Assembly (NCBI GenBank): GCA_964188305.1
Contig: OZ076885.1
Reading direction: 5' to 3' (one strand)
Length of the DNA stretch: 64,000 nucleotides
From: Podarcis bocagei
Lineage: Eukaryota
Below the pieces are notes generated by a model that saw only the letters and a program-made list of their open reading frames with translations, was not told the DNA's origin and did no database searches. Shown in pieces: positions 21,303-28,312 of this stretch (its first letter is position 1; each line of letters begins with the position of its first letter). The position numbers were made by a program, and so were the translations under genes.

Positions 21303-22036
21303 TGGAGGGGTGAAGGTCAGGATGACCAATGGAGAGCCAGGCTAAGAATCTCTGAAGCCATATTATAGAGCCATCTAAAAGCTAAAAGCACAAAGCCATT
21401 TTAGAAAGCAAAAGACTATTTCTCTTTCTCATGTTTGTCACTTTGCCACCTTTTGCAGAGGCAGCAAGCATGCAAGCTTGTGGGTGCAGCTAGCTTGCCC
21501 CTGCAGGAAGTTTGCCAGTTGAGGTTAAGCCATTTCTGAGAAACGACCCCTGACAAAGGCAAGTAGCAGGATGTTTGCTGACCGCCAGGCTCCAGATATA
21601 ACGCTTAGGTGTGAAGTTGCTAAACCACAAGGACATTTCTTGGAAGCGGGGGGTTCAGGGGCACTTCCTGGAACTAGTAAAGAGGTTAAGTAGATTATAA
21701 GCCAGTAGCGCCACCTAGTGGAATAGGCAACTTGGAACCGAAAGGCCACCACCAAATTTATTCATTGGTTGAGCTTTAATGAATATGTATCAATGACCAT
21801 AGGAAATTGTCAATCATTGGCTAAAGGGATGCCAAGGGGCTGAACTATGCTTTGCAGAAAGGTATATAAGTTAACTGCCCCTAAGGAGGGGTGGGCATTT
21901 TCTCTCATTTTGGCAGCTGAATGCACCCCTTTGCTTTGCTTGTCTGACAAATAAACCAAAGTCAATAAAACTTTTGTAATTAAAATATTGCTGCCTGGAT
22001 TTTTCCATTCTGGTCTGTATTCTGAAGTCTCTAACA
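21303..22036 (+). repeat. ERV 5' LTR
   Basis: TG...CA; TATA-like GGTATATAAG near 21861; AATAAA near 21950 and 21964. Confidence 0.95.
21706..21723 (-). promoter_or_regulatory. CTCF-like motif in the 5' LTR U3 (copy in the 3' LTR at 27982-27999)
   Basis: Minus strand TTCCACTAGGTGGCGCTA closely matches the CTCF core CCACYAGRKGGCRC. Confidence 0.6.
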
Positions 22037-22040
22037 TTTC

Positions 22041-22061
22041 TGGTGCCTGCGTGACTCGGAT
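22041..22061 (+). promoter_or_regulatory. primer-binding site, tRNA-His type with a 3-nt insertion
   Basis: TGGTGCC(TGC)GTGACTCGGAT versus TGGTGCCGTGACTCGGAT, the complement of the tRNA-His 3' end. Confidence 0.85.
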
Positions 22062-22667
22062 GGGGACCTTAAGTCCTCAAAAGACCAGAAGGCAGCTCCC
22101 TTGTCCTTTTCTAGGCAGGACACAGGGGAAGGGCCAATAGGCCGCTTATCCTGGCGCCACCGAGGCTTTTCTTCGGAGGAGGGCGAAGCCAATTTGACCC
22201 TTCTGCTGGATCCTGGAAGAGAAGGCAATGGATTGAAGGACCGAGGTTGACAGGACAGGGCAGAGTCCAGCCGGCTGGTGAGTACATGACAAAGGGCCCT
22301 GGGGACAGAGGAAGACAGAGACCCCCTTGTAATTAAAAAGGGGAAGGGGCATCCTGATCACATGCCCAAGCGTGTTTGGTGGCAGTAAGGGAAGGATTGG
22401 CCCCTGATACCCACCCACGCTTAAGGATTTAAAGGAAGGCAAAAAGGAAAAAGGGGGGGGGGACCGGGAGGCTAGTGTGTGTGGTACAGCGTCCAGTGAA
22501 AGAGGCACTTGGTGCGTGTGTGTGTGTAACCCCAGGGTATTCCCCTGGGGTAGAACCAATAAGTACTCCGCTTCCCAGCAGCGCGAGCTCGACTGGGCGA
22601 GGAAAATTGGGAAGTGCATGTGTGTGTGTTTGGTGTTTGGGGACGCTGCACAAGGGCCATATTAAAT

Positions 22668-22814
22668 ATGGGAGGGAGTGGCTCAAAAGGTCTAATAACT
22701 CCCCTAAAGTGCATGCTGAACAATTTCAAGAAAGGATTCAGCGGAGACTATGGCGTTGTGATGACGCCAGAACGCTTACACACTCTGTGTGAACTGGACT
22801 GGACACAGCATTGA
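22668..22814 (+). pseudogene. gag: ERV gag matrix N-terminus, truncated
   Basis: MGGSGSKGLITPLKCMLNNFKKGFSGDYGVVMTPERLHTLCELDW: myristoylation-type MG start and ERV1 MA motif. Confidence 0.85.
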
Positions 22815-23857
22815 ACTGGGAAGAAACATAGGGGCCCTAGCTGGGACAGGGCAACAAGGAGTATCTTTTGAGGCTGAGTAGTTACTTAGAGAAGAGTTTC
22901 AGACTCAGATTCAGATTTGGGAACGATGGAGGGGATCGCTCCAGAGATCCCTTAGGTTATCCAAGTTAGTATACAGAACCAGAGTGCATACAAAGCTTTC
23001 AGATCTCTGGACCTCAATGAAGGCAAGAGTTCAGCCAGGCAGAGCTGGAGGGTTCTCTGCTGAGCTGTAAGTTTGATAGTAAGGCAAGCCTCCTAGTTTC
23101 TCCAAAGCCCATCACTGAACTGGGAAGCACATGAGCCTTGCAGACCTCCAACAGTTTTGATCCCTATAGTAAGTACAGCTTGACCAGGGAGGACAAGCTA
23201 AATCCCAGAACTTAGTTAGGGAAGAGCTGGGTATCTATGTGACCAGCGGCAGTTTGGAACACATCAGGGAAACCACCAGTAGTGCCCTAGTTTCTCTGAT
23301 GACCAGTGAGAGGTGGTCTATGGCTAGGAAATACGAAATGGTTTTAGACCTATAGCAGTTATAGCTGAGACAGGGAGGGCAATTTAATTGGTGTCCTTAA
23401 CCAGGCACCAGCTGGATGGCTCAGTGCTCAGGTGTGTCTCAGAGAACACTGCAGCAGACCCCTGGTTTGAGACTCAGGCAGAGAAACCTCAAGAGAAGAC
23501 CTGCATCTTTGTGGCCACCACAGTTGACAAGTTAGTTGCCAGAGAAAAAGGATGAGGGAACAGATAATTTTAAAAAAAAAAAAACAAGCCGGACACCTGA
23601 AACTGACCACAGGGTGTGACCAGCCAAGGTCAGGTGTCTGCTGGGAGAACTACTAGAAGTTAAAAAAAAAAACACAAAAAAAACTGCATAAAACTAAAAG
23701 AGGAAGAAGAACTTTCTCCATTTAACTTGCATGAGTTTGTGAACATGGATGAAGTTCTAGAGGTTCACGTGATAATAGAGAAACCCCCCCACCCCCCTGG
23801 CTGAAGAAATATAAGACTGATCAATTCAAAATTAAGGAGAATTAATACACAGGCTTT

Positions 23858-24200
23858 AGAATTTCTTGGAACGCCTGATGGAGGCATACAGAATTTGGAC
23901 CCCCTTTGACTTTGAACTCCCTGCACATGAGTTAATGGTAAATGCCTCCCTCATAGGACAATGTGCAAAGGACATTAGAACCAAAATCCAAAAACAGCCT
24001 GGGTTCCAGGGCATGTCCAGATTTCAGATCATGGCCATCGCCCAGAAGGTGTTTGAACAAAGAGGAGAGGCTGAGAAGAGGGAGAAAAAGCAGTGGAGGA
24101 AAGAAAAGGCAGCAGTGTTAGGCACAGCAATGGCTCACAGGCCAGGGACCCGAGGGGTCCGCCGTAGCCATTCAGAGACCCGCGGCCAAGGGGGAGGAAG
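23858..24200 (+). pseudogene. gag: ERV gag capsid C-terminal fragment
   Basis: LERLMEAYRIWTPFD...LIGQCAKDIRTKIQKQPGFQGM...AQKVFEQR, a gamma-type CA C-terminal domain. Confidence 0.85.
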
Positions 24201-26233: not shown

Positions 26234-26536
26234 ATGTCCTATTGCCCTGACCCCACCGAGCCATACCGACCCTATTGGCCTGCGGACCTCTGCTACGACT
26301 GGTTCGTCTTGCCAGTGGTAAGAAACGGCGTGCTCATTGGCTATTGGGAACAGGGCTTTGATGAGGTTGCCGTATTGAAACATCCCACTACCCCACTGTG
26401 GCTTCTCTTCCACACCACTGTCCAGCGCACATGGGTACTGCTCCTACGGGAAGTTGCAGAGACGGTCGAAATCTATCGAGTTCTGGACCGCTCTTGCTGT
26501 TGTGGGGGGGGGAACCAACTGTCACTCAGGGGGTAG
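26234..26536 (+). CDS. orphan 100-aa ORF between integrase and env (candidate retroviral accessory gene)
   Basis: ATG at 26234, uninterrupted, complex aromatic-rich sequence MSYCPDPTEPYRPYWPADLCYDWF...EIYRVLDRSCCCGGG. Confidence 0.45.
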   Translation: MSYCPDPTEPYRPYWPADLCYDWFVLPVVRNGVLIGYWEQGFDEVAVLKHPTTPLWLLFHTTVQRTWVLLLREVAETVEIYRVLDRSCCCGGGNQLSLRG

Positions 26537-27138
26537 AGCACTGTACCAACCCCATCTGGTAGACCAGGTCCTAATCTTAATCCAGGTGTTGCATGGGACG
26601 GAGCCTATCTTAATGCAAATATTGCAGGGGAGGGAGCCTGAACCAGGTGCACATTGACAAGTGCCAGTAAATCCTGCAGCCCCACCTGTGGTTGTCGTGG
26701 TGGCTCGAGCCTCCCAAAAATCCCAGAATACTGCCTGAACTACTGGGCCTGGTAACTCCACATCTAATACCCTTGAATGTGGTAGGGTATTCTTGTGGCT
26801 GCATAAGGGTTGCCACCCCAGGCTTCAGCCTCCATAGGCCCTGGTCAGAGACCACGTAGGTGACCTCCACCTAGTAGGACCAGCCTTTGAACTTTACAGA
26901 GTCTATTGCCATCCCTATAGCTCCTGAGGCCTAACAGTGTATCAGTGCCAGGCGGCCACTTTTCCCTGTGTAGAGTGGGAACGCTATGTGTGTAGACGCT
27001 GTTCACGCCTCAGTAGGGCCAGGAGTTAGAGGCCCACATGACCTGGCCTTCGTGGGCCCCCATCCCTTTGGCTTGTGGTATTTCTGTGTTGGTGGTACAG
27101 TTCTTTGTTCTGGGGCACCGAACATCCCTCGCATCAGG

Positions 27139-27545
27139 ATGTGGATCATACCCTGCCTCCTGATGGTTCTCACCTCTCAAATGGCCACAGGGTGGAAGGA
27201 AAACACCTTCCTGAATATGACAACAGCTGTAGCTAAGAGCCTGAACAGGTCTGAGTGTTACAGGCTGATTTGTACCACAAAATTAGTCTAGATGGTGCAG
27301 GTCTCCCCAGTGTATGTAGTTGAATTAGTTCTTAACTCCCAGGTTGGTCATGGTTAAAAGAGATTTTGCTTGTGATTTTACTTCTCTTCGTTATCGTATT
27401 ACTCTTATCATGCTTTTTGCCTTGCCTTATTCAGATTGTACGCCAAATGGTAAGCCGCTCAGTTAATGCAGCAACACGTACCTATATCCTGGCTCTCTAT
27501 GATATTGTACCTATAGGTCCATCAAGCGAAAATGGAGAACCGTGA
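27139..27545 (+). pseudogene. env: ERV env with a large internal deletion (signal peptide/SU start plus TM anchor and tail)
   Basis: MWIIPCLLMVLTSQMATG-WKENTFLNMTTAVAKSLNRSEC, then from 27336 LPGWSWLKEILLVILLLFVIVLLLSCFLPCLIQ...GEP*. Confidence 0.85.
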
Positions 27546-27565
27546 CCGGTCAGCATTTTCGTGAT

Positions 27566-27578
27566 GGAAAGGGGGGAA
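27566..27578 (+). promoter_or_regulatory. polypurine tract
   Basis: GGAAAGGGGGGAA immediately before the 3' LTR. Confidence 0.9.
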
Positions 27579-28312
27579 TGGAGGGGTGAAGGTCAGGATG
27601 ACCAATGGAGAGCCAGGCTAAGAATCTCTGAAGCCATATTATAGAGCCATCTAAAAGCTAAAAGCACAAAGCCATTTTAGAAAGCAAAAGACTATTTCTC
27701 TTTCTCATGTTTGTCACTTTGCCACCTTTTGCAGAGGCAGCAAGCATGCAAGCTTGTGGGTGCAGCTAGCTTGCCCCTGCAGGAAGTTTGCCAGTTGAGG
27801 TTAAGCCATTTCTGAGAAACGACCCCTGACAAAGGCAAGTAGCAGGATGTTTGCTGACCGCCAGGCTCCAGATATAACGCTTAGGTGTGAAGTTGCTAAA
27901 CCACAAGGACATTTCTTGGAAGCGGGGGGTTCAGGGGCACTTCCTGGAACTAGTAAAGAGGTTAAGTAGATTATAAGCCAGTAGCGCCACCTAGTGGAAT
28001 AGGCAACTTGGAACCGAAAGGCCACCACCAAATTTATTCATTGGTTGAGCTTTAATGAATATGTATCAATGACCATAGGAAATTGTCAATCATTGGCTAA
28101 AGGGATGCCAAGGGGCTGAACTATGCTTTGCAGAAAGGTATATAAGTTAACTGCCCCTAAGGAGGGGTGGGCATTTTCTCTCATTTTGGCAGCTGAATGC
28201 ACCCCTTTGCTTTGCTTGTCTGACAAATAAACCAAAGTCAATAAAACTTTTGTAATTAAAATATTGCTGCCTGGATTTTTCCATTCTGGTCTGTATTCTG
28301 AAGTCTCTAACA
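27579..28312 (+). repeat. ERV 3' LTR
   Basis: Direct repeat of 21303-22036, no difference seen by eye; preceded by the PPT. Confidence 0.95.

Follow-up and report, generated by a model that had tools for sequence, protein, structure and literature searches.

The 64,000-nucleotide stretch of contig OZ076885.1 analyzed here (the window; Podarcis bocagei, NCBI GenBank assembly GCA_964188305.1) carries a 7.0 kb endogenous retrovirus (ERV) at positions 21303-28312, plus strand, with no N inside. The copy has no gene left for a functional enzyme or envelope. With a probability of about 0.68, it is a non-autonomous provirus: the RNA of a gamma-like provirus that was already damaged would have been reverse-transcribed and integrated in trans by a helper. 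Cis landmarks (leader, primer site, polypurine tract, ends of the long terminal repeats) are retained, and every gene is lost. This combination, no coding capacity with cis signals kept, is that of a non-autonomous ERV.

The two long terminal repeats (LTRs), identified by self-BLAST of the window, measure 734 bp each and are found at 21303-22036 (5' LTR) and 27579-28312 (3' LTR), both on the plus strand. They start with TG and end with CA, exact alignment gives 0/734 mismatches, and identity breaks off precisely at the TG and CA termini. The 5' LTR features a TATA-like motif at 21863, and AATAAA at 21950 and 21964. Comparison of the two flanks revealed the same 4 bases at both ends of the element (21299-21302 and 28313-28316), as expected for a target-site duplication; a 4-base match of this kind has a chance probability of 0.004. 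No second copy of the element, or of any part of it, was found by self-BLAST elsewhere in the window. The flanking sequences (~20900-21302 and 28313-~29300) appear by eye to be two halves of one decayed retroelement pol, whose reading frame, also by eye, runs on across the target duplication. We provisionally take this pol to be DIRS/Ngaro-like, from motifs of reverse transcriptase (RT), RNase H and tyrosine-recombinase type; no significant Pfam family was found in it.

A primer binding site of the tRNA-His type is located at 22041-22061 (plus strand), and was identified by its match to the His site given in the accessible text of PMC3253121. It carries a 3-nt insertion, and the duplex is made by 7 bp, a 3-nt bulge and 11 bp. 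Pairing is still strong (-31.5 kcal/mol, vs -36.3 kcal/mol for a perfect site), and the site is the best among the 1396 30-mers of the element. The leader, which measures 631 bp from the 5' LTR to the gag start, spans 22062-22667 (plus strand); it would contain the packaging region, and a splice-donor-like site was spotted in it by pattern scan (22275-22282, plus strand). A polypurine tract of 13 purines (27566-27578, plus strand) directly adjoins the 3' LTR. The hallmarks of class I LTR elements (TG...CA LTRs, tRNA primer site, polypurine tract, short duplication) are present, the primer site with its 3-nt bulge.

Gag is represented by two separate remnants. The gag start, corresponding to the matrix N-terminus, extends for about 45 codons (22668-22805, plus strand), and homology then stops; it matches protein P0010 in tblastn (E 7e-7), and both P0010 and P0087 in phmmer. 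Homology resumes at 23860-24195 (plus strand) with the C-terminal part of the capsid and a linker (Gag_p30 E 9.5e-11; gag profile E 4e-31). The two remnants are set apart by block A, about 1.05 kb of foreign DNA without detectable gag homology (22806-23859, approximate boundaries, no strand assigned). Block A is CpG-poor (observed/expected ratio, o/e, 0.11) and contains runs of A. Neither a Pfam match in six frames, nor a credible gag-profile match past 22880, nor a match by tblastn with the fetched Pol and Gag proteins, nor another copy in the window was found for it, and Rfam gave 0 matches across 20000-30000.

A second foreign tract, block B (24201-24804, plus strand), is made by an open reading frame (ORF) which opens at the junction with its own ATG at 24201, few bases from the end of gag homology. 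The product is 90% identical over 125 amino acids to the unnamed protein P0089, which begins at the same Met and does not cross the gag junction. Relative to P0089, the frame changes near 24575. The block B N-terminus hits Copia N-terminal clusters of the Atlas at 0.90-0.91 with 131-140 shared features, values of lead level (<170), and all four sets among the Atlas matches listed are Copia-type. The N-terminal domain DUF4219 / Retrotran_gag was sought in the ORF of the window, which gave no Pfam match; P0089 scores 10 bits against DUF4219, under the cut-off of 27. Block B looks like the start of a Copia gag, as a lead only.

Nucleocapsid, protease and RT are absent after the capsid part, as no RVP or RVT match was obtained in any of six frames, with stops read as X. 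The pol remnant, delimited by domain searches and tblastn, spans 24805-26212 (plus strand) and consists of RNase H pieces and integrase. A short RNase H piece starts at ~24805, some 34 codons are then missing with a change of frame, and the end of RNase H follows. Integrase is interrupted by an in-frame stop at 25608-25610 and by a frame change near 25988-26000. A pattern scan marked a splice-acceptor-like site within pol at 25906-25918 (plus strand). Two ends survive of env. The start (27139-27261, plus strand), recognized by eye as a motif, includes a signal-peptide-like stretch, hydrophobic at 27139-27171, and the first residues of the surface subunit (SU). The end (27264-27545, plus strand) includes a membrane-proximal part with two stops, the membrane anchor (27363-27419) and the tail, anchor and tail forming a section at 27336-27545. 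Most of SU and of the ectodomain of the transmembrane subunit (TM) is absent, and with it the part that would hold the gamma-type immunosuppressive domain and CX6CC motif. The assignment to env is based on position, hydrophobicity and one weak match (P0036, E 0.003), and neither Pfam nor PDB gave a match. A preliminary description of this DNA, made from the letters alone, had reported 734-bp LTRs without difference, an intact 4-bp duplication, a gag split by foreign DNA, no protease or RT, an integrase with a stop and a frameshift, and an env lacking most of SU and TM, all features found again here. It had also counted the primer site, with LTR, leader and polypurine tract, among the signals kept, which is correct for the last three, the first carrying the 3-nt insertion.

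The element is best read, from sequence comparison, as a gamma-like (class I) ERV of a squamate lineage. The Gag_p30 match and that of MLVIN_C (E 3.3e-9) both exceed curated cut-offs, and denote a capsid and an integrase C-terminus of the murine leukaemia virus (MLV) type. All 88 matches of the pol search are vertebrate retrovirus-like Pol proteins, including that of reticuloendotheliosis virus (REV), to which identity is 40%. The closest pol relatives are the unnamed ENA protein P0104 (74%) and Gag-Pol proteins of Podarcis muralis and P. lilfordi, including P0001 (69%); after Podarcis come, in this order, Zootoca, Anolis, other squamates and bats. The closest relatives, unlike this copy, contain RT. 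Together with a ~350-bp repeat of the window (see below), these matches would point to a squamate, probably lacertid, host. Two pol searches gave no relative more than 77% identical, the best being at 69-76%. A tree was built on the integrase region only, with midpoint root and no outgroup from other retrovirus classes; its 39 rows are the window sequence and 38 of the 114 fetched proteins, picked for taxon spread. The window pol groups with P0104 and Podarcis in a 4-row clade (support 100/100), which sits in a squamate and bat group, away from REV. Strongly supported branches separate the window sequence from the REV group, and the element falls outside the REV-holding clade (genus Gammaretrovirus).

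The Podarcis Pol cluster has 15 members, 6 of which measure 1172 amino acids, and intact members of the sister lineage therefore exist. Near-identical full-length 1172-amino acid copies reside on Podarcis contigs up to 8.5 kb, which suggests that wall lizards may carry a young, possibly still competent ERV family. Pol proteins of the bat Cnephaeus nilssonii (P0003, P0007, P0013, P0106) form a clade which is sister to the squamate group (96/91). The position of the bat clade would hint at a past reptile-bat transfer.

The damage very probably predates this insertion, as the preliminary description had inferred. With 0 differences between the two 734-bp LTRs, the age is at most about 0.7-2.0 Myr if rates between 3 and 1 x 10^-9 per site and year are assumed, and the 5542-bp interior can have accumulated at most about 11 changes after insertion (95%). 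Stops, frame changes, deletions and replacements number about 12 in a hand count. Substitutions were evaluated at those columns of the RNase H-integrase region where at least 11 out of 12 distant relatives share the residue. The window sequence departs from the conserved residue at 12/82 of these columns, the intact Podarcis Pol at 2/82 (Fisher p 0.0095); the close relatives P0104 and P0107 depart at 3/63 and 3/66, respectively. The implied pol decay is 5-6%, and 77-84 LTR differences would be expected had decay followed insertion, vs 0 observed. The terminal branch leading to the window sequence measures 0.21, vs 0.11 for the sister P0104. Considering the ~12 lesions and ~10 excess substitutions, the chance that all 20 changes miss the LTRs is 0.009. 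With LTRs still identical, so much damage in the interior can hardly have arisen after insertion. The alternative that an intact virus inserted recently, and suffered all the damage later, is highly improbable: the bound of ~11 interior changes permits one late stop or small indel, but ~12 structural lesions and ~5% substitution decay are far above it. Two possibilities are left: recent copying of a template that was already damaged, or LTRs homogenized afterwards through conversion or assembly.

In the former of these two cases, a damaged, recombined ancestor would have been transcribed from its 5' LTR. The RNA may have been packaged, via the intact leader and first gag codons, by the Gag-Pol of a separate intact element. 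Priming by tRNA-His would have occurred across the 3-nt bulge, as the computed pairing allows. Reverse transcription with two strand transfers would have reset both LTRs to the identity which is observed, and the integrase of the helper would have inserted the product, leaving the observed 4-bp duplication. The interior would have decayed earlier, unselected, and two foreign blocks would have taken the place of gag and pro-RT regions; the simplest route to them would be a template switch onto the RNA of a co-packaged retroelement. Since full U3-R-U5 LTRs are found at both ends, next to a 4-bp duplication, RT and integrase must have come from outside the copy. LINE (long interspersed nuclear element) machinery might also supply enzymes from outside. 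LINE-made copies would extend from R to R and carry a tail. Remnants of LINE RT are present in the window, and ERV copies mobilized by LINEs have a precedent listed in the literature (PMC5537654). Here both LTRs are complete and identical, no poly(A) tail is found and the duplication measures 4 bp; the full LTR pair rules out a processed copy of this type, to which we attach next to no probability.

LTR homogenization by gene conversion would turn the element into an old provirus, decayed in place, whose LTRs became identical over their full length. The insertion in the primer site fits decay in place, and the LTRs are CpG-poor like the flanks. In the accessible part of PMC4335370, some conversion is reported for ~6% of the orthologous loci of primates. 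In this element, all 734 bp would have to be converted, with erasure of ~80 expected differences, and two internal segments would, in addition, have to be replaced exactly at the level of DNA. The target duplication is still perfect. CpG o/e is 0.53 in pol, vs 0.19-0.21 in the flanks, unlike what a long stay in methylated DNA would leave, a weak point which depends on the starting level. On balance, full-length conversion is distinctly unlikely.

Identical LTRs may also be the product of the assembly, if multi-mapping reads caused two slightly diverged LTRs to be collapsed, or polished, into a single consensus, or if the interior is a chimeric join of different repeats, or both. The sole gap of the window, made by 141 N (12489-12629), bears on the assembly quality of the region. 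Its odd size suggests that the assembly was scaffolded. A run of nine G residues coincides with a frame change in one of the ORFs described below (X1), more long homopolymers are found in block A and in the leader, and the junctions of the foreign blocks are abrupt. Against an artefact stand the matching 4-bp duplication (chance 0.004), the interrupted flanking element, which keeps its frame on both sides (by eye; no Pfam support), and the order and strand of the retroviral parts, which are right from LTR to LTR. Other repeats in the window stay 72-98% identical, i.e. they have not been homogenized. The substitution excess in integrase is not explained by an artefact alone, though with collapsed LTRs this excess would simply denote an old provirus. 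Altogether, an artefact of assembly is unlikely.

Several observations weigh against recent copying in trans of a damaged provirus. CpG o/e in the LTR is 0.17, vs 0.19-0.21 in the flanks, as might be found in old methylated sequence. The uncorrected defect of the primer site argues against many recent rounds, since this site tends to be restored from the tRNA when copying is repeated. The excess of departures is small at a stricter column threshold (4/44 vs 1/44), and distant relatives, in leave-one-out counts, reach 14/91 (P0012), 9/89 (P0002) and 9/88 (P0019); part of the excess may correspond to lineage divergence. None of 7 ORFs of the element is found as exact sequence in the protein collection (0/7), and the best intact relative is 69% identical, which means no close helper among the fetched proteins. 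Finally, identical-LTR loci in old families have occasionally been ascribed to conversion (PMC4335370, same part of the text).

Copying in trans remains the reading that we prefer, in a narrower form than the preliminary description had given it. Mobilization by a helper stands insofar as a foreign RT and integrase are implied, and the wording that the element is still copied goes beyond the data, the age being up to ~0.7-2 Myr. The active lizard retrovirus proposed at that stage goes equally beyond them, because an endogenous element without infectivity could have served as helper. Neither is a satellite family demonstrated, considering the lack of a second copy in the window, the absence of exact ORF matches, and best relatives at 69-77%; the chances that the element is one of many sister copies, rather than a one-off recombinant, are about even.

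The interval from the pol stop (26212) to the env start (27139) contains two orphan ORFs. X1, a candidate accessory gene, spans 26234-26657 (plus strand), with a frame change in the G run at 26504-26512. X2 (26868-27026, plus strand) is the remnant, interrupted by one stop, of the 3' part of a paralogue of X1. Downstream of the acceptor-like site at 25906-25918, the first ATGs are found at 26212 and 26234. X1 is 77% identical to P0108 (140 amino acids) and 69% to P0109 (147 amino acids), and these relatives align from the same start Met; a deleted variant resides on 15 contigs. X2 is 77% identical over 43 amino acids to the C-terminus of P0111, a protein that shares 33% identity with P0108 (E 7e-14) and P0109 (E 9e-11). 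All relatives of X1 and X2 are unnamed proteins (P0108-P0114, 64-79% identical), and the domain was found in none of the 107 other fetched proteins.

Residues W, C, Y, F, P, H or G account for 71% of the 24 positions which are invariant in the first 100 columns, vs 35% overall. In its 5' part, X1 shows differences of a more conservative kind than neutral change would give (P 0.04 and 0.01), and a significant result was also obtained for pol. The test was non-significant for the X1 3' part (P 0.30, 0.11), X2 (0.20), block B (0.20) and the true capsid taken as control (0.40), which denotes low power. X1 resembles pol in GC and CpG (0.54; 0.48), unlike block A, and the X2 region is more CpG-poor (0.26). 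Pfam, PDB sequences and the Atlas (low recognition score, 1735) gave no match to X1 or X2. For the X1 relative P0109, AlphaFold produced a poor model (pLDDT 54, 3 sequences), in which a beta-meander comes after a helix. With this model, Foldseek found nothing viral at E 0.001 or better, and the best VIA Z, 6.1, is within background. A likeness to Vpr or Vif was considered by eye, and dropped as nothing supported it.

We see an even chance that X1 and X2 were accessory genes of a complex parent virus; they could instead be a third captured block. In lentiviruses, vif and vpr are located between pol and env. X1 and X2 are likewise short ORFs of the element, set between the pol end and the env start, and downstream of an acceptor-like site. 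They differ from accessory genes of complex retroviruses in that no sequence or fold similarity to these was found, and in residing in a gamma-like backbone, a group which is usually simple. Gamma-related class I ERVs have been described with typical gammaretroviral structure (bioRxiv 2021.11.23.469661, accessible part).

Copying in trans of dead proviruses is a known process, documented by ETn, VL30, recKoRV and cattle D-type elements; likenesses and differences are given here as far as the available excerpts of the reports go. In recKoRV, young retroviral LTR ends enclose an interior swapped for older, unrelated retroelement DNA, the product is coding-dead and is found at new loci, and co-packaging has been proposed as the route of recombination (PMC6112702). 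In contrast, the lizard element has two separate blocks, one of which is Copia-gag-like and not ERV-derived, the retained pol is itself ~5% decayed, and neither a parent with the same LTR nor sister copies are known. Replacement of the interior by another retroelement may be reflected here in block B, which has an independent 90% identical relative and Copia-like leads. Cattle ERVK[2-1-LTR] elements of the D-type measure ~6.8 kb, lack a full ORF, and are mobilized in trans by competent elements of ~10 kb (PMC10924933); they belong to the ERVK group and are known from de novo insertions and hundreds of loci, whereas here a single class I locus is at hand. The mouse pairs ETn/MusD and VL30/MLV likewise associate non-coding LTR elements with a coding helper, and VL30 is of class I, but these families are proven to be multi-copy and polymorphic, and their helpers have been identified (PMC6466679). 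The closest sequence relatives, i.e. the Podarcis Gag-Pol lineage (P0001, UniRef A0A670ILY5; P0090) and P0104, are 69-74% identical, and represent a sister lineage rather than a direct parent or a demonstrated helper.

Identical LTRs (0/734 here) are shared with the invading ERVs (ERVi) of Wang and Han 2023 (PMC10435555, partial text). ERVi must have gag, pro, pol and env in intact form, which is not the case of the lizard element; as the screen requires intact genes and an RT match, an element devoid of RT is invisible to it. Recently invading ERVs have already been reported in squamates in the same paper (n = 5 in the legend to Fig. 2). In the portions available of its supplements, Podarcis and Zootoca appear in the species list only, Lacerta agilis also in the read-accession table, and the element may overlap with an ERVi lineage listed there by abbreviation. 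Gamma-related viruses are known from reptiles (PMC8922424, partial text). A literature search by title and start of abstract, of incomplete coverage, retrieved no paper on a non-autonomous lizard ERV, on a Copia-ERV chimera or on accessory ORFs in reptile gamma-like viruses.

Additional features were noticed in the window. At least 7 ORFs resembling TPR-coding exons mark a host gene at 40540-63385, minus strand (TPR_1 E 3.5e-8 for one), presumably TTC6-like. From the last TPR-like exon detected to the provirus, which is on the other strand, there are about 12 kb. A location of the provirus inside an intron was considered and rejected, because the exons are found at 40540-63385 only, and none is to the left of the element. 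A decayed LINE RT is located at 16012-17365, minus strand (RVT_1 E 8.4e-16). An element of ~265 bp, present twice (18732-18996 and 33632-33895) with 94% identity between the copies, has terminal inverted repeats plus an internal hairpin, and resembles a miniature inverted-repeat DNA transposon. A ~350-bp interspersed repeat, with copies 78-94% identical, occurs at 6265-6626, 9998-10347, 13835-14152 and 15052-15422, and further members of the family at 42342-42702, 54353-54713 and 58522-58891; we provisionally take the family to be Sauria SINE/Squam1. A GC-rich tandem repeat (3158-3970; periods of ~54, 102 and 165 bp) is open in several frames. A 238-codon low-complexity ORF, acidic and Gly-Ser-rich (8651-9367), is open also in the antisense frame and is possibly part of another LTR element.

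The lizard case extends copying in trans of dead proviruses to squamates, and reveals a blind spot of RT-dependent screens for young ERVs. A broader scenario, in which a complex gamma-like lacertid virus has, between pol and env, a duplicated accessory pair of a new protein family, and gave rise to a young satellite family that captured a Copia gag fragment by template switching across superfamilies and is still mobilized by an intact helper, is doubtful; were it true, a satellite family of this kind would go wholly unnoticed in RT-based screens. The X1/X2 pair is more surprising than copying in trans. If confirmed as a family of orphan genes which is conserved, duplicated and set between pol and env, it would represent an independent origin of accessory genes, and would point to an unstudied reptile host pathway engaged by the virus.

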